IMG/VR virus record: IMGVR_UViG_3300047650_000023
Source: a virus
Strand: one strand, 5' to 3'
Length of the DNA: 64,000 nt
Shown: positions 8,129 through 47,449 of the stretch, one piece after another
Numbering within the stretch: the stretch's first letter is position 1
Layout: each line of letters begins with the position of its first letter
Program-made: the position numbers and the translations under genes
The notes under the pieces: generated by a model
What the model was told of the DNA's origin: nothing
Seen by the model: the letters and a program-made list of their open reading frames with translations, nothing else
The model's database searches: none

Positions 8129-8147
8129 TCCATATCAAACAAGTTTT

Positions 8148-8913: not shown

Positions 8914-9055
8914 TCACAGTTTGATATTTGCTTCAAATGGCATATCATTTCCCATAACCATATATGGCTTGAAGCGCCTCGTGTTCATTTTTAAGTATCT
9001 CCATTCCTAAATTAGTAAGTTTAATTTTTACCTCATTATTAATATTATAATCCAT
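8914..9055 (-). pseudogene. Probable frameshifted or internally deleted small phage gene
   Basis: Starts MDYNINNEVKIKLTNLG after GAAAGGA and stops at 36 aa; another frame reads PYMVMGNDMPFEANIKL* to a stop abutting a junction site. Confidence 0.4.
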
Positions 9056-9078
9056 GTCAGACATCCTTTCAAACTATA

Positions 9079-10646
9079 ATAGAATCTGTAATTGCTAGGG
9101 TTTAAGAAACCATATTATTTTCACATAATTTACCAAACTGCCAACCATTATTATGGCAAATAATTTTTGCTTTCTTCATATAAATGGATAAACTATTTTT
9201 ACGTTCAGTCATTTTAATTAAATTACCTTCTGCATTTCTTATTAATGCATCATGACTTCGTTCACCTCCGCAAAAACCATATACCCAACCAGTTTGATTA
9301 TTATACTTAATCATGTCATTCATAAACACACCATTCCTAAAAGGCACATTTTTATTAGCTCTAGTTGCTGTTACATTTTTATGGCTTCTGCCTTTACGTG
9401 GAATTGATTCATGTAAAGAACGTTTCTTTTTACGAAACTGTTTATACATAAAATATTCTTTCGGATTATACTTAATGATTTTAATTCCACTAATAGTTAT
9501 CGCATCATTATAATGTGTTTTATCCAATTCAAGTTCTTTCCTATTTGGAGTAGTTTCATTTCCATAAGTAATTATAGCATTCGGATATTGTTGAAAAGTA
9601 CGTTTTCTTACAATATTCATAAATACACTTTCACGATATTGTTTAACTTTCTTATGCTCTTTCATCCACTTGTATAAAATACTACCTTGTTTATGATTCT
9701 CAGATGTATGACAATCAGAACATACTGTAATTAAATTATCTGCTCTGTTTGTACCACCTTCTGATTTATATAAGATATGATGAGTGTGCAAAATCTTATT
9801 TTTCTTGTGACATACTTGACAAGTATATTCATCTCTTGCAAAAACAAAATATCTCACGGTGTAATAATCTTTGCAATCACCATTTTGATAATCTTTTCCG
9901 CTGATATCTGGATTAATCATTTTTGCAACATCAAACTTACCAACTTCAATATGAAGTTTTGGATTAAAAACTAAGGAACAAAATGTATCAATCCATTTAA
10001 ATGTTGAATTTACTCGACTGTTAATACTAGGAGGCAACCAATTGTCTTTACGCTTACGATTGAGGAATCTATCTTGTCTATATCTAGTTTTCTTGTTACG
10101 TCTGTGCCTTCTAAATGTTTTTCTTACAATCATTAAATTATGAATATCTTGACGTAATTCAATTTCACCTTTTACTAATACTTTATCATCAGATGTAATT
10201 GCTATGCCAATATGTTTTGCTCCAGTATCTACACCAACATTAACTTCCTGTACAGTTTCACCTGTCGGATAAAGCAATTGAATAGTAAAAGGATTATACT
10301 TAACAATCTTTGCTTTATTCTCTTTCAAAAGCAATCTTGCCTTTTTATTAGAACAAGGCATAAGAGGTTGATTTTTTAAATTTTTAACGAATACTCTCAA
10401 GTTTCGTTCTCCTTTCAGAGTTGTTTCCCTTCGGCAATGTTCTAATCGCTTGTCATTCGACCAATTCTAGGTTGACCGCATCGTGTTTTTCAATGCTTTT
10501 ACAGAGCCTACACAGAGCATGGGACTAGGGAATCATCCCAAGGTGTGATAACGATAAGAACGTAGTAATTTAATACTTAGCCTATTGCTTGATACACGTA
10601 AGTGTATGATATTTCTATCAAAAACCCAAGCAAACCTACAATCTAT
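9079..10646 (-). mobile_element. Non-autonomous IscB-omegaRNA unit bounded by inverted 18-bp junction sites
   Basis: ATAGAAtctgtaATTGCTAGGGTTT (9079-9103) is an imperfect inverted repeat of 10622-10646; no tnpA in the window. Confidence 0.6.
9102..10400 (-). CDS. iscB: IscB RNA-guided endonuclease (OMEGA, Cas9 ancestor)
   Basis: PLMP N-terminus (QPLMPC), RuvC-I VGVDTG, Arg-rich bridge (RRHRRNKKTRYR), RuvC-II HIEV, HNH (HTHH...GGTNRADNL...CH), RuvC-III HYNDA; TTG start after AAAGGAG. Confidence 0.95.
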   Translation of the reverse strand: MRVFVKNLKNQPLMPCSNKKARLLLKENKAKIVKYNPFTIQLLYPTGETVQEVNVGVDTGAKHIGIAITSDDKVLVKGEIELRQDIHNLMIVRKTFRRHRRNKKTRYRQDRFLNRKRKDNWLPPSINSRVNSTFKWIDTFCSLVFNPKLHIEVGKFDVAKMINPDISGKDYQNGDCKDYYTVRYFVFARDEYTCQVCHKKNKILHTHHILYKSEGGTNRADNLITVCSDCHTSENHKQGSILYKWMKEHKKVKQYRESVFMNIVRKRTFQQYPNAIITYGNETTPNRKELELDKTHYNDAITISGIKIIKYNPKEYFMYKQFRKKKRSLHESIPRKGRSHKNVTATRANKNVPFRNGVFMNDMIKYNNQTGWVYGFCGGERSHDALIRNAEGNLIKMTERKNSLSIYMKKAKIICHNNGWQFGKLCENNMVS

Positions 10647-10654
10647 TCACTCTT
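10401..10654 (-). ncRNA. omega-RNA (scaffold about 10401-10634, putative 5' guide about 10635-10654)
   Basis: GC-richer structured non-coding segment directly 5' of iscB: 5' stem TTGCTTG/CAAGCAA, then AATAGGCTAAG, ACTACGTT, CCTTGGGATGATTCCCTAGTCCC and CATTGCCGAAGGG, resembling omega-RNA elements. Confidence 0.8.
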
Positions 10655-11793: not shown

Positions 11794-12330
11794 TTATACT
11801 TTTGCACGATTAGATATCAACCAAATTAACATATCTTTATTAACTTTTTGTTTTGCATTATTGATATCATTACTAACAATAAAAATCATTAATGATCTTA
11901 AATGTGCATCTGCCGATGTTCTGTTACCAACAAATCTAACAATTTCATTAACTGTTACTGTAGCAAAATCCTTGCTGCTAAGTTGCTCAAGAAAGTTTCC
12001 TATAGTTGCTTTATACGTTGCCCAACTGGATTTTACTATAGTCTGTTCAAAAGCATCATAATACTGTTGATTATCAGCACTCAGATTAAAATGTTTAATG
12101 TTCTTTTCTGCTGCTTTTGCAAAGTCTTGATTCATTGATCCTTGATATTTAAAATGTGAAATATCAATACCAAGAACATCAATTTGTTTTCTTATATACT
12201 GTCTTGTAGTGCCGACAGTGTTATTAAAACCGAGATTATCACATACTTTTGCAATTGTGTCTGAAGATTGTATCGCCTTAACAAAATCATCTTTAGCTAT
12301 TTGTCTTCTGCCTAATGTCACCATTTCCAT
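11794..12330 (-). CDS. Putative DNA-binding protein: HTH-like N-terminus plus integrase core-binding-like C-terminus, no catalytic domain
   Basis: N-term FVKAIQSSDTIAKVCDNLG...LGIDISHF; C-term SSWATYKATIGNFLEQL...ATVTVNEIVRF resembles integrase SAM-like domains. Confidence 0.45.
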   Translation of the reverse strand: MEMVTLGRRQIAKDDFVKAIQSSDTIAKVCDNLGFNNTVGTTRQYIRKQIDVLGIDISHFKYQGSMNQDFAKAAEKNIKHFNLSADNQQYYDAFEQTIVKSSWATYKATIGNFLEQLSSKDFATVTVNEIVRFVGNRTSADAHLRSLMIFIVSNDINNAKQKVNKDMLIWLISNRAKV

Positions 12331-16156: not shown

Positions 16157-16230
16157 ATGTAACAGTCACTTTCTAATTATAATTTATTTCTGTTAAGTGT
16201 GAACCAAATCCGAATTCTATAGGGTTTATC

Positions 16231-30522: not shown

Positions 30523-31377
30523 ATGAATACTAATTCAATATCTTTTACAAGAGCAAATACAATTAATGATAAACCAAATAAAAATAATGTTAATAACAAC
30601 AACGTAACTAGTATTTTTGATTACATGCCTAAAACAAAAATCATTGAATCTGAAGAAATTGAATCAGACAATGATTTAATAGAAGAATTAACAAATAAAA
30701 ATAAATCCAATCATCCAAGTGCTTACACATCAAGAGGAATTATAAAGGCAAAAACAGTTGAACCATTTAGTTCAGAAGATATAACTAAAATGAAAAAGCA
30801 TTTTTTAGATAAAAAAGAATATAGAAATTATATGTTATTTTTATTAGGTGTTTCACTAGGGTTTAGAATTGGGGATTTACTATCTCTTAGGATATCTGAT
30901 GTAATGAATACTAATTCTACTTTTAAAAAACGTGTAGAGATATATGAGCAAAAAACTAAAAAATTTAATAATCCACTATTGATTAAGACATCACAACAAG
31001 CAATAGCTTTATATTTTGAAAATATCAAATCTAAAAATAAAGATTATGAAATTAAGAACCACATGGATGATTATTTATTTATGAGTGCAAAAGGATTTAA
31101 AGAAGTATTAAAAGTTCCATCGGCACATAAGATTTTAAAAACAACAGCAAGAGAACTTAATATTGATAGAAATATTGGTACGCATTCTTTAAGAAAAACT
31201 CATTTTCATATAATGTATGATAATGAAACTAACAAAGGAAATAATGATGCATTAGATTTAGTACAAATAGGATGCAATCATTCTGATAAGAGAACCAGTT
31301 CTAGGTATATTGGTTTAACACAAGAAAGAATTGATGAAGCTAAACAAGGTATATCAGATATACTAGAGAAATTATAA
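30523..31377 (+). CDS. Tyrosine recombinase (integrase family)
   Basis: GFRIGDL (R), HSLRKT (HxxR), NHS (H), RYIG (Y) catalytic set. Confidence 0.9.
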   Translation: MNTNSISFTRANTINDKPNKNNVNNNNVTSIFDYMPKTKIIESEEIESDNDLIEELTNKNKSNHPSAYTSRGIIKAKTVEPFSSEDITKMKKHFLDKKEYRNYMLFLLGVSLGFRIGDLLSLRISDVMNTNSTFKKRVEIYEQKTKKFNNPLLIKTSQQAIALYFENIKSKNKDYEIKNHMDDYLFMSAKGFKEVLKVPSAHKILKTTARELNIDRNIGTHSLRKTHFHIMYDNETNKGNNDALDLVQIGCNHSDKRTSSRYIGLTQERIDEAKQGISDILEKL

Positions 31378-32701: not shown

Positions 32702-33604
32702 TTGATATTATTGAATTGTATAGCAGGAATTTATAAAATAATAAATAAACAGAATAATAAGATGTATATTGGTGAAACTGAAGATGTTTCAAGAAGATGG
32801 GTAGAACATTTAACTGATTTAGTATCTAATGAGCATTGTAATAAAAAGCTACAAGATGATTTTAATAAATATGGTATTAAGAATTTTTTGTTTGAAGTTA
32901 TTGAATCTATCATAATAGATAATAATGATAATTCCAATGTATCAGTATTTAAATTGAAAATGACATTACTTTGTAGAGAAACATTTTACATAAGAAAATA
33001 TAATACTATTGAAGACGGATATAATATAGTTGATTCAATAAAAGAAACTTTAACAAATAAATGTGATATATTTTATAGAAATAGAACACAAAGTATAGAA
33101 ACGTCTTTTATGATTAGAAATTTCTTAAAAAATAATTTTAAATTATTAAATAGTGAAAGTGCTATTATAACAAATGAAGATATTTTAATAAAAGAAAAAG
33201 TCAAAAATATAAATGCAAATAAACCAAAAATAAAAGAAACTAAAAAAATCACAGATATAATTATTAAAAAATCTAAAAATAAAAAAGACAAAAATGAATA
33301 TTTTAGAGATATTGGATGCTTAGGAATGAATGAAATTTATACATTAGCAAAAGAAAATAAATTAATTAGTGATATAATGAAAATATCTGAATTTAGAATG
33401 ATACTTCAAGATAATAATATTATTCATTTTGAAAATGGATCATGGCATACTACTCAATCATCCTTAGATAATAAATTAATTTTATTAGGGGATTTAAAAA
33501 ATAATAAAGATAAATTTACATATAATCAATTATGGTTTACGCCTAATGGAATAAAAGTAATTAATAGTATCTTTAATATCAATAAAGGAAGTGATGTAAT
33601 TTGA
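32702..33604 (+). CDS. GIY-YIG endonuclease with KilAC/antirepressor-like C-terminus
   Basis: GIYKI...MYIGET...RRWVEH; C-term WHTTQSSLDNKL...LWFTPNG. Confidence 0.75.
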   Translation: MILLNCIAGIYKIINKQNNKMYIGETEDVSRRWVEHLTDLVSNEHCNKKLQDDFNKYGIKNFLFEVIESIIIDNNDNSNVSVFKLKMTLLCRETFYIRKYNTIEDGYNIVDSIKETLTNKCDIFYRNRTQSIETSFMIRNFLKNNFKLLNSESAIITNEDILIKEKVKNINANKPKIKETKKITDIIIKKSKNKKDKNEYFRDIGCLGMNEIYTLAKENKLISDIMKISEFRMILQDNNIIHFENGSWHTTQSSLDNKLILLGDLKNNKDKFTYNQLWFTPNGIKVINSIFNINKGSDVI

Positions 33605-37469: not shown

Positions 37470-40220
37470 ATAGCTAAACAATTAATGTGTCAAAAGTTTA
37501 TTTATAAAATACATAGTGCTAGATTAAGAGATAATAAATGGAAATTAACATTACCTATTTATGAAGCAAGAAAAAATGATGAGATAATTGCTTTAGCAGA
37601 TAGTTCTACATTGAGATTTATTGATAAACTGAATAACATTACAGATTCAGAATTTAAATGCAAACAAATAAAAAAGGAATTAAGTGTTATTAAGAATCAA
37701 CCTAAATCAAAATCAAACAGAGATAAGATTCGTAAATTATATTCTGATCTTGATGCAATCCAATTTAAACCAGATTATATGTGTTTAATTATTGATAAAA
37801 ATTCAGATTATAATAGAGCAAAAAAAGGTTTTTATATTAACGGAATTAGATATCATAGATATGTTGGTACTCCTAATGGGGTAAAAAATGAAACTATTGT
37901 ATTTGTAAGTGATAGACATTATTCTGAATTAAGTAAACATATTGAGAACGGTAGAAATCCTAATGTTGAATTAGTACCTGCTAAATTTGAAGCATATAAA
38001 GCATTAGATTGTAGTGCGTCAATTCTAGTATCTAATCCTAAAGGCGTATTAGTTGTTGATGATTGTATTACTCATTTTAAATCCGATACTATACATATTG
38101 ACGATACAAATGATGGAGAACCACAATTATTTACTGTAAAAGATGATGATGTGGAATTATCGGATAGCGATGGATATGGGCTTATACTTCCCTCTTTAAG
38201 TTTACAATGGAATAAAGATATTGGAGAAAAAGAACCATATATAAGTAGTGGTTACTGTGTGAGAAATTCTTTTTGCAAGGGAATGGTTTTTTGCTTTGAC
38301 TTCATAAGGTTTGCGTATGAAGTTGCCGGAACCGATATAGTATGTGATGCTTGGGAAAATTGGCATAACATAAATGATATTGAAATAATTTTAACCACAT
38401 CTATGCTTAAACTTTGGGATAGTTATGATAGTATTGAAGATTATTTGTCTAAGTGTGAAAAGAATGGACATGGTTTTAGTATAACTAAATGCTGTCCCAA
38501 AGAGTTAGAGAATGAACGTAATTTAAACTATCAATTTATTCAAAGTTATAATTTTACCGATCAACAAATTCAAGGATTAATTCAACCGACAATTGATGAA
38601 ATAAAAGATGTTTTAGGTGGAGATTATTATAAAAGTCTTTTATTTTTAAAAGGTATTTATTTAAATGACGATAATGTAAATGCATTAGATTGTGATTTCG
38701 CTAAAGCTCTAATGATTGATAAAAGAATGATTAATGACCCATTCGTAAGAACCAGAATTTATCAAATGATTAAAAAGCGAATTACAGAAGCAAAAGTCGG
38801 CGTTATTAAAGTACATTCAAATTTTTCAATTGTTAGTGGTGATCCTTATTCTTTATGTCAACATATATTTGAATTAGAAGTAACAGGTTTATTAAAATCT
38901 GGTCAGGCATATTCAAAATATTGGTTAGATAAAGAGGTAGATAAAGTTGCTTGTTTTCGTGCGCCGATGACTTGTCATAACAATATCAGAATTTTAAATA
39001 TTACTGCGACAGATGAAATGATAGACTGGTATCAATATATGACTACTTGTACTATATTTAATTCATGGGATACTGTCGCTCATGCCCTTAACGGATTAGA
39101 TAAAGATTCTGATCAAATCTTAACCACAGACAACAAATACATTATAGAAAATGTACGAAATTTGCCAGCAATTATGTGTATTCAACGTAGAGCAAAAAAG
39201 AAAATTGTCACAGAAGATGATTTAGTTAAAGCAAATATTAATAGCTTTGGAGATGAAATTGGCTCAACCACTAATAGGATTACAAGTATGATTGAAGTTC
39301 AATCTCAGTTTTCTGCTGATAGCGAAGAATATAAAGTTTTAGATTATCGTATTAGATGCGGACAATTATTTCAGCAAAACGCTATTGATAAAACGAAGGG
39401 TATAATAGCAAAACCTATGCCTAAAGAATGGTTTAATAGAGATTCTAACAAAATACGTCCAGAAGATAATGAAGAAACTATTAAATTAAAAAAGTTTAAT
39501 CAATCAATTGTTGCAGATAAGAAGCCATATTTTATGTGTTATATATATCCTCAAGATATGACTAAATATAAAAAATACATAGCTAATACTAATCGTAAGG
39601 CTCTTCGTGAATTTAGAATTACAATGCAAGAATTATTTGATAAACCTAACAAAACAAAACGTGAGAAAGAATTTATTAATTATTATTATCAGAGGATGCC
39701 AGTAGGTATTAGTAAATGCGTTGTAAACAGAATTTGTTGGATTTTTGAAAAAGAATTTGATGGATATTTATCTAAAGAATTAGCTAATGTTGATTTTGAT
39801 TATAATATTTTAAAACATAATGTTGGATATAATCAAAAGACTTTTAATGATATAAAAAATATTTATGATTTATATATTAATAAACTTCAAGATTATAGAC
39901 AGTTAGTAAAACGTGAGCATATTGATTCTGACGAAGCTACAGTTGCTCGTGATGTATTAAAACAAGATTTTAAAAAAGAATGCGAAAAGATTTGTTCTAA
40001 ACAATATGAATTATGTGATATTGTTTTAGATATATGTTATCAAGATAATAGATCTAAACAATTTGCTTGGGATGTATGTGGAGATGTGATTATTGAAAAG
40101 TTATTAAAAGAAAATAATAATACAATTATGTATCCTGAGTTAGATGAAAATGGTACAATTGAATATGGTGGTAATTGGTTTACTATGCGTTCAAAACAAA
40201 TAGGAGGTGATTTAGATTGA
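37470..40220 (+). CDS. yonO: YonO-like single-subunit, double-psi-barrel RNA polymerase (eukaryotic RdRP-related fold); probable ATA start
   Basis: SDGYG, VRN..CKGM, GDPY, FRAP and DxDxD (DKDSD) motifs; SPbeta-like position before the late module; GGAGG lies 9 nt before in-frame ATA. Confidence 0.85.
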   Translation: MAKQLMCQKFIYKIHSARLRDNKWKLTLPIYEARKNDEIIALADSSTLRFIDKLNNITDSEFKCKQIKKELSVIKNQPKSKSNRDKIRKLYSDLDAIQFKPDYMCLIIDKNSDYNRAKKGFYINGIRYHRYVGTPNGVKNETIVFVSDRHYSELSKHIENGRNPNVELVPAKFEAYKALDCSASILVSNPKGVLVVDDCITHFKSDTIHIDDTNDGEPQLFTVKDDDVELSDSDGYGLILPSLSLQWNKDIGEKEPYISSGYCVRNSFCKGMVFCFDFIRFAYEVAGTDIVCDAWENWHNINDIEIILTTSMLKLWDSYDSIEDYLSKCEKNGHGFSITKCCPKELENERNLNYQFIQSYNFTDQQIQGLIQPTIDEIKDVLGGDYYKSLLFLKGIYLNDDNVNALDCDFAKALMIDKRMINDPFVRTRIYQMIKKRITEAKVGVIKVHSNFSIVSGDPYSLCQHIFELEVTGLLKSGQAYSKYWLDKEVDKVACFRAPMTCHNNIRILNITATDEMIDWYQYMTTCTIFNSWDTVAHALNGLDKDSDQILTTDNKYIIENVRNLPAIMCIQRRAKKKIVTEDDLVKANINSFGDEIGSTTNRITSMIEVQSQFSADSEEYKVLDYRIRCGQLFQQNAIDKTKGIIAKPMPKEWFNRDSNKIRPEDNEETIKLKKFNQSIVADKKPYFMCYIYPQDMTKYKKYIANTNRKALREFRITMQELFDKPNKTKREKEFINYYYQRMPVGISKCVVNRICWIFEKEFDGYLSKELANVDFDYNILKHNVGYNQKTFNDIKNIYDLYINKLQDYRQLVKREHIDSDEATVARDVLKQDFKKECEKICSKQYELCDIVLDICYQDNRSKQFAWDVCGDVIIEKLLKENNNTIMYPELDENGTIEYGGNWFTMRSKQIGGDLD

Positions 40221-44004: not shown

Positions 44005-44769
44005 ATGGCAAAAGAAAAATTGTGTGGAATCTATTGTATTGAAAATTTGGTGAATGGCAAAAAGTATATTGGCTTATCTATTAATATTAAACAGCGTTGG
44101 ACACAACATAAAACTGATTTAAGACATCAATATCATAAAAATTCTTATTTACAAAATGCTTGGAATAAATATGGTGAAGATAATTTTGGATTTAATATTA
44201 TACAGGAGTGTAAAAAAACTGAATTATCTGAATTAGAAAAATTTTATATTGATAAATTTGATACTACAAATGAAAAATATGGATATAACTTAACATTTGG
44301 TGGTGAAGAATGTATTCATACTAAACAATCAAAAGAAAAATTGTCAAAAGCTAGAATAGAACATTCTAATAATAGTCCTAATACTCAAAAGGTTGTACAA
44401 TTAAATATGTTTGGACAAATCGTTAAAGTATTTAACACTGTAAACGAAATTAATAGATTACTAGGATATGACACTAAAGGAATTCGAGGTTGTTTAAATA
44501 AGGAGCCTAAAAGAAAAACAGGTTATAATTGTATATGGATGTATTATCAAGATTTTTTAGATAATGGTTGTAACTTAGATAATTATAAAACTAAATATTG
44601 TAACAAATCAAAAAACATTTTACAATTAAATTTAGATGGTAATGTAATCAATGAATTTAAGAGTATTAATTATGCTGGAAAAATATTAGATATACCAACA
44701 CAAAACATTTCAAGATGTCTATTAAATAGAACTAAAACAGCAGGTGGTTTTATGTGGAAGTATGCTTAA
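44005..44769 (+). CDS. GIY-YIG homing endonuclease with NUMOD-type repeats
   Basis: GIYCIENLVNGKKYIG; GYN motif; two VxQ..L.G..(V/I)..F repeats. Confidence 0.9.
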   Translation: MAKEKLCGIYCIENLVNGKKYIGLSINIKQRWTQHKTDLRHQYHKNSYLQNAWNKYGEDNFGFNIIQECKKTELSELEKFYIDKFDTTNEKYGYNLTFGGEECIHTKQSKEKLSKARIEHSNNSPNTQKVVQLNMFGQIVKVFNTVNEINRLLGYDTKGIRGCLNKEPKRKTGYNCIWMYYQDFLDNGCNLDNYKTKYCNKSKNILQLNLDGNVINEFKSINYAGKILDIPTQNISRCLLNRTKTAGGFMWKYA

Positions 44770-46028: not shown

Positions 46029-46118
46029 GGAGAGTTGGCAGAGTTCGGTTTAATGCGTCTGTCTACTAAACAGATAATGGTAAAACATTCGTGAGTTCAA
46101 ATCTCACACTCTCTTCCA
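46029..46118 (+). tRNA. tRNA-Ser with anticodon ACT (long variable arm, encoded CCA)
   Basis: Acceptor GGAGAGT/ACTCTCT, anticodon stem TCTGT/ACAGA, loop CTACTAA, T-arm GTGAG-TTCAAAT-CTCAC. Confidence 0.85.
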
Positions 46119-46707: not shown

Positions 46708-46782
46708 GCAGATATAGTGTTAATGGTAGCACACGAGTTTTCCAAACTTGGAGTGACGATTCAAATTCGTTTATCTGCTCCA
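46708..46782 (+). tRNA. tRNA-Gly (TCC)
   Basis: Acceptor GCAGATA/TATCTGC, U73, CCA; anticodon loop TTTCCAA; T-loop TTCAAAT. Confidence 0.9.
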
Positions 46783-47223: not shown

Positions 47224-47449
47224 CATAAAACAGCTATTTTATAGGGTTTAATTAAATAGAAGATAGATCGAGAGCATCAAGAATTAATCTTGGTGCTTTT
47301 TATTGTGTCTTTTTATAAGATACAATTGGATATTTTATGAGGCTTAGTTAGATTTTATATCATAGATTAAGAAAGAAGGATTTACAATTTTATATAGATT
47401 TGAATTAACGGAATATGTATTTAAACATCCTGACGGTCATTATATACCT

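Follow-up and report, generated by a model that had tools for sequence, protein, structure and literature searches.

An IscB/omega-RNA element at a gene junction of an AT-rich phage, and a flank hexamer six nucleotides before the omega-RNA scaffold of its closest relatives

An iscB gene and its omega RNA were analysed in a 64,000-nucleotide stretch of viral DNA (IMG/VR record IMGVR_UViG_3300047650_000023; hereafter the window), together with the loci of related elements. The iscB open reading frame (ORF), delimited from the ORF list, Pfam matches and alignment, lies on the minus strand at 9102-10400 and encodes 432 amino acids from a TTG at 10400. This start gives the N-terminus of the relatives, MRVFVKN; the database call (P0001) begins at ATG 10361 instead and gives 419 amino acids. 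The Pfam domains RRXRR (9.5e-60) and HNH (2.7e-09) were found, and all invariant columns of a 33-member homologue alignment are kept. The invariant residues (P0001 numbering) include D45, E139, H194/H195, H283 and D286, to which catalytic roles are ascribed. The W-Q-F codons of the conserved C-terminal motif CHNNxWQ[YF] (9135-9143, minus strand) form the last stretch alignable with relatives. Solved IscB structures gave only distant matches that left the C-terminal part uncovered, and yielded no target-adjacent motif (TAM).

Directly upstream of iscB on the same strand, the omega-RNA scaffold (10420-10633) was identified as a full-length match (model positions 1-211 of 211) to the Rfam family HEARO (RF02033), running from 10633 to 10420 with 84.4 bits against a gathering score of 83. 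In the HEARO alignment UUGCUUGG (10633-10626) pairs with UCAAGCAA (10592-10585) as the first stem, and two small hairpins, TGATA-GAAA-TATCA and ACAC-TTAC-GTGT, lie inside the RNA. Judged from its sequence, the element is an IscB/omega-RNA (OMEGA) RNA-guided nuclease with gene and RNA intact, and cleavage is predicted. An earlier note on this DNA had claimed an intact iscB and omega RNA with the same first stem, and both claims held.

The position of the guide was read from relatives present in several copies. In Ectobacillus funiculus, copies of a related element (L135, L139, L140 and L144) lose their similarity precisely on the upstream side of GTCAAC, at HEARO position 1; two 98%-identical elements in unrelated flanks (L010 and L044) also diverge exactly at the scaffold start. 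Because multi-copy relatives diverge exactly at the first scaffold base, the guide is best taken as junction DNA 5' of the element. From these divergence points the guide-encoding flank is predicted to be the 16-20 nucleotides (nt) just 5' of the scaffold, before 10633/10634 (10635-10654, minus strand), and would be dictated by the junction DNA; T10634 can be assigned to guide or scaffold. As flank, the guide would hold, in order, the stop codon of the upstream gene, the arm ATAGAT and the core TGTAGG. The 16-mer of the guide region occurs once in the window. The earlier note had placed the guide at 10635-10654 and had it set by the neighbouring junction; the first is correct within 1 nt, and the second agrees with the Ectobacillus copies. 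[quoted passage not shown]

The main result concerns the DNA that immediately precedes the scaffold. The closest clade comprises relatives of 65-74% identity on AT-rich phage or metagenome contigs, in which the scaffold starts with TTTGCT, TTTCAA, TTTGTT or TTTCCT and continues with a linker ending in a T run and then a small tetraloop hairpin. Eighteen loci of this clade were aligned on the scaffold start TTT[GC] and compared at offsets from -40 to -6, and two more were fetched later; together they represent about 16-17 contexts without detectable flank homology. A hexamer, ATVRAW, stands at -12 to -7 in 14 of the 18 loci exactly and in 18 of 18 with at most one mismatch, and each of the other offsets has at most three exact matches. 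At the same offset, no ATVRAW match was found among the flanks listed for loci whose scaffold does not start with TT. In the window the hexamer is the left arm ATAGAT (10641-10646, minus strand), which holds the upstream stop codon, and the six nucleotides that follow are the core TGTAGG (10635-10640, minus strand); the core varies between loci, even for near-identical elements.

Written as hexamer, core and scaffold start, the window reads ATAGAT-tgtagg-TTTGCT. The corresponding sequences before TTTGCT are ATAGAA-tgcaac-TTTGCT (L062), ATAGAA-taatgt-TTTGCT (L056), ATCAAA-gagaaa-TTTGCT (L048), ATGAAA-cagcaa-TTTGCT (L008), ATAAAA-ctgaga-TTTGCT (L012) and ACCAAA-tattta-TTTGCT (L041); before TTTCAA they are TTGAAA-gccgca-TTTCAA (L011) and ATAGAA-cggtag-TTTCAA (L013). 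Both loci fetched later conform to the pattern, with ATAAAA-gagaaa-TTTGCT (L208) and ATGAAA-cgtgta-TTTCAA (L215). Homology of flank proteins among the loci was confined to the pairs L010/L079 and L039/L041. Because hexamer and core both differ between near-identical elements, they belong to the flank and so reflect a constraint on the target site. The link of this IscB lineage to an arm-N6 motif is real, and stronger than the earlier note was able to see (18 of 18 loci at one offset, and two more later). The flank hexamer is a new finding. The lineage seems tied to ATVRAW-N6 on its guide side and so seems to settle in one class of phage junction site.

Three other identities of the hexamer were tried and rejected. 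As a -10 promoter box it would need the key second-position A of sigma-70-type promoters, which about 7 of 18 loci have, and a start there leaves no guide. As a mere stop codon of the upstream gene it fails in the 5 of 18 loci that hold no stop, and the real stop of L002 lies outside the hexamer. As part of the element it is contradicted by the 98%-identical elements, between which hexamer and core both differ.

Two IscB elements, each of about 83-91% DNA identity to L195, stand behind the same flank, gTTGAAAgccgca (L010/L011 and L079). The proteins encoded upstream of them are only 48% identical; conservation is thus higher in the guide region than in the adjacent gene, which would be expected if that region were under selection or co-converted.

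The same data bear on the view that the IscB is an immobile relic, inherited vertically, whose end repeat and sites arose by chance in AT-rich DNA. Several observations agree with it: junction sites with one mismatch are at chance level, the end repeat described below is an event of about 1% that was chosen post hoc, the only other copy found belongs to the same phage and is identical in sequence, and the folding energy of the omega RNA is unexceptional (z = -0.6). The fixed-offset hexamer in all close-clade loci, however, cannot be chance; gene and RNA are intact, and near-identical elements occur in unrelated contexts. We consider a relic very improbable.

The element ends were then compared among relatives. 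Relatives of 58-64% identity (L014-L016, L023, L026, L027 and the Ectobacillus copies) have classic IS200/IS605 anatomy: the iscB stop is followed by GCAATTCAT or a variant and then by a second, direct copy of the hairpin that comes first in the omega RNA. The Ectobacillus copies diverge downstream after the end of this hairpin, which precedes TGTTAAA. In the close clade, window included, no hairpin follows iscB, and the ribosome-binding site of the next gene lies 10-40 nt downstream. The earlier note had named standard hairpin ends at homologous loci as evidence that would refute it, and the outcome is split: they are present in the 58-64% relatives and absent after iscB in the closest clade. 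Similar subterminal hairpins at both ends, the mark of IS200/IS605 (ISC) elements, are thus replaced in the window by a hairpin inside the omega-RNA end only. The sequence common to L010 and L044 extends from TTTCAAAGG to GGCAGTAT with none beyond, and this limit puts their 3' boundary inside the ORF, directly after the WQY codons, with the final codons supplied by the flank. In L041, L056 and L039 similarity ceases at about the stop codon. No recognisable second arm-N6 site was found at the 3' ends of the relatives, and no second copy of the core near the 3' boundary of L010 or L044. When the final two bases of the W-x-Y codon and the next four were read as a TAM-like 3'-boundary hexamer, some matches appeared, which coding bias could explain.

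In L062 (Ga0172378_10046434) the IscB element has copies of one small hairpin, GTTGAAATTTCAAC, on both sides, each at a distance of about 35 nt. The DNA 5' of this element, TGAATAGAATGCAACT, agrees with the window guide, TGAATAGATTGTAGGT, at 12 of 16 positions, and the upstream genes are unrelated.

These ends are central to the possibility of ordinary IS200/IS605 (ISC) transposition by a Y1 TnpA acting in trans, in which the hexamer would be a target or TAM motif and the junction sites TAM-rich DNA. ATVRAW covers the ISC motifs ATGA, ATCA and ATAA of N|ATGA-type elements (PMC4810608) as well as the complement of the GstIscB TAM, TTCAT (PMC10055086). The complementary strand of the omega-RNA end (AGCAAA or TTGAAA) resembles the motif, as the transposon-end motifs of the family resemble TAMs, and copies agree exactly in their ends. 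Only about 1.5% of iscB genes have a tnpA beside them (PMC10055086). Against this, the motif stands on the guide side and 6 nt off, whereas the published position adjoins the end far from the omega RNA; the far end has no hairpin for TnpA binding, and a TAM-like hexamer at the 3' boundary is weakly indicated. No Y1 transposase was found in the 41 window ORFs scanned with Pfam (iscB and 40 others of 95-330 amino acids; the genome is about 188 kb), which agrees with the earlier note that the window holds no tnpA, nor in the partial phage records G001 (L197-L198) and G002 (L199-L202), which hold close-clade IscBs. Transposition by TnpA is, in our judgement, unlikely.

A Y1 transposase (PF01797, 4.9e-33) was found at 145569-145922 of a 200-kb viral record (G004, the record of L017); about 16 kb from it, the record has an IscB whose ends are hairpins of the classic kind.

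The hexamer is also one arm of a palindrome that recurs in these phages. Perfect copies of ATMRAW-N6-WTYKAT number 15 in the window against an expectation of 4.7, with 13 of them at gene junctions; in at least one checked case, at 8134, the upstream stop codon lies inside the left arm. G001 holds 9 perfect copies (2.8 expected) and G002 holds 15 (3.6 expected). With the clade hexamer, ATVRAW-N6-WTYBAT, the counts at spacer 6 are 20 in the window (9.5 expected), 11 in G001 (5.2 expected) and 18 in G002 (6.8 expected), and the excess is confined to this spacer, with none at 4, 5, 7 or 8. One-mismatch copies of ATMRAW-N6-WTYKAT are at chance level in the window (93 seen, 80.8 +/- 8.5 expected); neither the loose form ANNRAW-N6-WTYNNT (172 seen, 170.5 expected) nor direct repeats of the hexamer are enriched. 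Candidate roles for the 18-bp palindrome are those of a protein operator, a site of RNA processing or a site of recombination.

Both ends of the window element carry sites of this general form. The two 18-mers, ATAGAATCTGTAATTGCT at 9079 and AGCAAACCTACAATCTAT at 10629, each match ATMRAW-N6-WTYKAT with one mismatch. Facing the left arm across the element, the right arm TTCTAT (9079-9084, minus strand) stands 23 nt before the ATG of the next gene, a spacing that is usual for right arms in this phage (compare 2676, 8134, 8447, 8896 and 19175), and the upstream stop codon inside ATAGAT has the same phase as in the left arm at 8134. Between the iscB stop and the right arm lies the tail ACCCTAGCAATTACAGA (9085-9101, minus strand), whose terminal TTACAGA was likened to CTACAGA of L062 and TTACATA of L002 and L008 and may be the 3' terminus of the element. 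No target-site duplication is evident. The inner repeat arm TTGCTAGGGTTT (9092-9103, plus strand), which overlaps the iscB stop codon, is an 11/12 inverse of the scaffold start TTGCTTGGGTTT (10622-10633, minus strand).

Taken together, 9078-9103 and 10622-10647 form a terminal inverted repeat of 26 nt with 73% complementarity. Its quality (11/12 and 18/25) is reached by about 1% of random 50-nt pairs drawn from the left arm of this phage, and as evidence of more than chance it is suggestive, not compelling. The inverted repeats of about 25 bp claimed in the earlier note are real as a repeat, and the 18-bp sites on which they were built fall in the one-mismatch class that is at chance level. 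The inner repeat of 12 nt, formed by TTGCTTGGGTTT and AAACCCTAGCAA, is present in the window copy only, and the 3' ends of the relatives showed nothing comparable. The 5' arm of this repeat (TTTGCT, then TGGGTTT) belongs to the omega RNA itself as its conserved start, and in unrelated contexts it covaries with its pairing partner in the first stem. Since TTGCTTGGGTTTTT in the window is the normal 5' end of the omega RNA (compare TTCCTTGGGTTTTT in L079), it is not an arm of a phage site, as it had been taken to be. The start of the 3' copy, TAAACCCTA, also precedes junction sites at 16203 and 47225, and this copy may be phage junction DNA.

Three junction-type sites (16203-16228, 47225-47250 and 9079-9104) have TAAACCCTA (opposite strand, AGGGTTTA) as a common outer extension. 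These sites account for three of the nine occurrences of AAACCCT/AGGGTTT in the window.

The same ends had suggested to the earlier note that phage cassette machinery moves the IscB: the palindromes would be core sites of a phage site-specific recombinase, and the IscB cassette would recombine in the 6-bp core and so gain a new guide at each junction. The 6-6-6 layout does resemble a tyrosine-recombinase core, and the enrichment is spacing-specific and lies at gene junctions. Both window ends look hybrid (outer phage arm, core, inner element arm) with inner arms inverted at 11 of 12 positions, a tyrosine recombinase gene is present at 30523-31377, and near-identical elements occupy unrelated junctions, always directly after arm and N6. 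The cassette reading nevertheless fails its clearest test, because the two cores differ (TGTAGG at the 5' end, TACAGA at the 3' end), and it finds no support in relatives: their 3' ends show no recognisable second site, L010 and L044 have no second core near the 3' boundary, and the inner repeat is confined to the window copy. The inner 5' arm is part of the first omega-RNA stem and covaries with its partner strand, and the recombinase gene lies 20 kb off with no link to the sites. In the terms used for integron-like cassettes, neither a crossover core shared by both junctions nor a site at each boundary with a dedicated recombinase was found. Movement by such machinery is thus highly improbable.

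As a whole, we regard as moderately probable the explanation that this is a solo IscB/omega-RNA element without a transposase, spreading by RNA-guided homing and splitting a single junction palindrome. The element would represent a phage-associated sub-clade of ISC (IS200/IS605-superfamily) elements in which only the omega-RNA end persists and iscB is followed by no hairpin end, and its omega RNA would be transcribed by read-through from the upstream gene. The most likely activity, we infer, is homing: IscB would cut the same junction in co-infecting relatives without the element, which would then be copied into the cut site during repair. Homing into co-infecting phages has been discussed as a category (PMC13565253).

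The two sites at the ends would then be one canonical junction palindrome, ATAGAT-N6-TTCTAT, split by the element. This split-site reading is proposed because the stop phase of ATAGAT, the spacing of TTCTAT and the TTACAGA tail fit a single junction site. With an element of 9085-10634, its removal would restore ATAGAT-TGTAGG-TTCTAT, and the expected empty joint would be ...GAGTGAATAGATTGTAGG|TTCTATTATAG. If the boundary were instead after the WQF codons, at about 9134-9137, the expected joint would be ...TGTAGG(T)|TTGGTAAATT. In either case the 5' flank (ending ...ATAGATTGTAGG) would be expected to join window DNA between 9137 and 9079 in the empty allele. The inner 5' arm, as the conserved omega-RNA start, would resemble a right arm by coincidence.

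Several observations weigh against this explanation. The split-palindrome reading does not generalise across loci: the own left arm is mirrored in the 3' flank no better than a permuted arm (82 against 82.2, across loci), and no right arm adjoins the 3' boundary in L010 or L044. The inner inverted repeat of 11/12 (about 1% by chance) is left as a coincidence or a lineage-specific quirk. If the right arm were the TAM, the element's own start, TTTGCT, would be one base from the typical TTTGAT, and the distinction between self and target would be delicate. Homing alone cannot explain near-identical elements in unrelated junctions, always after hexamer and 6 nt; L010 and L044, 98% identical, occupy such unrelated junctions. 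Finally, no empty allele of the window phage was found when it was searched for through relatives of the flanking genes, and in the well-sampled L010 phage every contig read was occupied. The search of related phages that the earlier note had recommended thus gave no empty allele, and the only other copy of the window IscB is from the same phage and identical.

Within the indexed collection, the 41-amino-acid gene just upstream of the L010 IscB occurs in 470 blocks, that IscB in 177 and its downstream neighbour in 183. Alleles of this locus that lack IscB or vary in it may exist among shorter contigs outside those read.

Overall, the observations of the earlier note (iscB, omega RNA, stem, repeat, no Y1 in the ORFs scanned) were confirmed, and its interpretation was partly supported. 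A wider proposal is put forward tentatively, as possible though doubtful. In it, an IscB lineage specialised for phages has lost the end that a transposase binds and now depends on a conserved 6-6-6 junction palindrome common to a group of AT-rich phages; every insertion falls immediately behind an arm and a 6-nt core and brings a new guide. The arm may be the TAM, the inserter could be an HUH enzyme, a phage recombinase or IscB itself, and the sites might also shuffle small accessory genes.

The host of the element is a large, AT-rich, c-st/SPbeta-like phage. The window has a G+C content of 26-30%; up to about 28 kb the minus strand is filled with small genes, and beyond this point the plus strand carries those for replication and structure. 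A 911-amino-acid protein (37485-40220) is 44% identical to a Clostridium phage c-st protein, and related genes are annotated as YonO-type RNA polymerase. The window IscB has a database copy on contigs of 187,759 and 88,124 bp, the latter identical to the window over 9.3 kb; a phage collection gave no nucleotide match to the window, and a search of IMG/VR did not turn up the sequence of the 5' junction.

The upstream phage gene (10643-10834, minus strand; from the ORF list) encodes 63 amino acids with the C-terminus DGSEFQVTIVKSE and stops with TAG at 10645-10643. Only distant relatives of this protein were found, in high-GC phages, and its C-terminal motif is common only to those. The downstream small gene (8945-9064, minus strand; 39 amino acids as called in L001) more likely starts, from its sequence, at ATG 9055-9053, with a ribosome-binding site GAAAGGA at 9064-9070. 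Protein searches found no relatives of the 64-amino-acid downstream protein.

The phage is rich in selfish nucleases. Homing-type genes elsewhere in the window encode an HNH protein (11794-12330, minus strand; PHROG 10822) and two GIY-YIG proteins (32702-33604 and 44005-44769, both plus strand), one of the two with NUMOD and I-HmuI-like domains. The tyrosine recombinase (284 amino acids, 30523-31377, plus strand; Phage_integrase family, 2.9e-14) could be an integrase or a dimer resolvase; it is the sole recombinase found in the window, and nothing ties the gene, 20 kb from IscB, to the junction sites. Phage tRNA genes lie on the plus strand at 46029-46118 (tRNA-Ser with the unusual anticodon ACT) and 46708-46782 (tRNA-Gly, TCC). 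On the contig of the closest IscB relative (L002, 69% identity), a TnpB gene (OrfB_IS605/Cas12f-like, 1-915) lies about 1.5 kb upstream, so that both kinds of omega-RNA nuclease are present on one phage-like contig.

In the usual description, IscB is a passenger of TnpA, which reads a hairpin at each end and a short motif on the side opposite the guide RNA. In the present loci an entire sub-clade is missing the far end, yet has exact ends and a strict guide-side flank motif in many unrelated phage junctions. This pattern points to an undescribed rule of target selection or mobilisation and makes the sub-clade a natural test case for RNA-guided homing between phages. It also connects IscB with a spacing-specific palindrome that is a mark of gene junctions in at least three phages. 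If the palindrome arm were the TAM, every junction of these phages would be a potential landing site, which would bear on the reshuffling of accessory genes in large phages.

Among known systems, the PeSL 'mobile regulatory cassettes' reportedly described in T4-type phages by Arbiol et al. in 2010 share with the window repeated short stem-loops at the junctions of small accessory genes, for which shuffling of modules is said to have been proposed. Unlike the window sites, they are reportedly promoter-plus-stem-loop units that rely on homologous recombination, with no nuclease or guide RNA.

The ISGst IscB elements of Geobacillus stearothermophilus (Meers et al. 2023, PMC10055086) resemble the window element in that a HEARO-type omega RNA precedes iscB on the same strand, and the guide, a predicted one in the window, is taken from the flank beyond the omega-RNA end. 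In both, tnpA is usually absent from the element, and the nuclease is expected to cut the element-free site. The window clade differs in lacking a subterminal hairpin at the end far from the omega RNA; its hexamer lies 6 nt outside the omega-RNA end, whereas the published TAM adjoins the other end, and its host is a phage with no transposase in view. The ISC2 transposons with N|ATGA (also ATCA and ATAA) targets (Kapitonov et al. 2016, PMC4810608) are likewise short, non-autonomous IscB-only elements without an evident target-site duplication, and their family of target motifs overlaps ATVRAW. In ISC2, however, the motif comes immediately after the 3' end, read on the iscB strand, and each end has a hairpin, whereas in the window the motif lies 6 nt before the 5' end and there is no 3' hairpin.

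Free-standing phage homing endonucleases (intronless homing, for example T4 SegF; PMC13565253) share with the window a selfish nuclease gene between phage genes, which is expected to spread by cutting the rival allele in co-infection, and the same phage carries homing-type genes of the HNH and GIY-YIG families. In contrast to protein-DNA recognition by these enzymes, specificity in the window is predicted to come from an RNA guide copied from the flank, and self would be told from target by the presence or absence of the insert.

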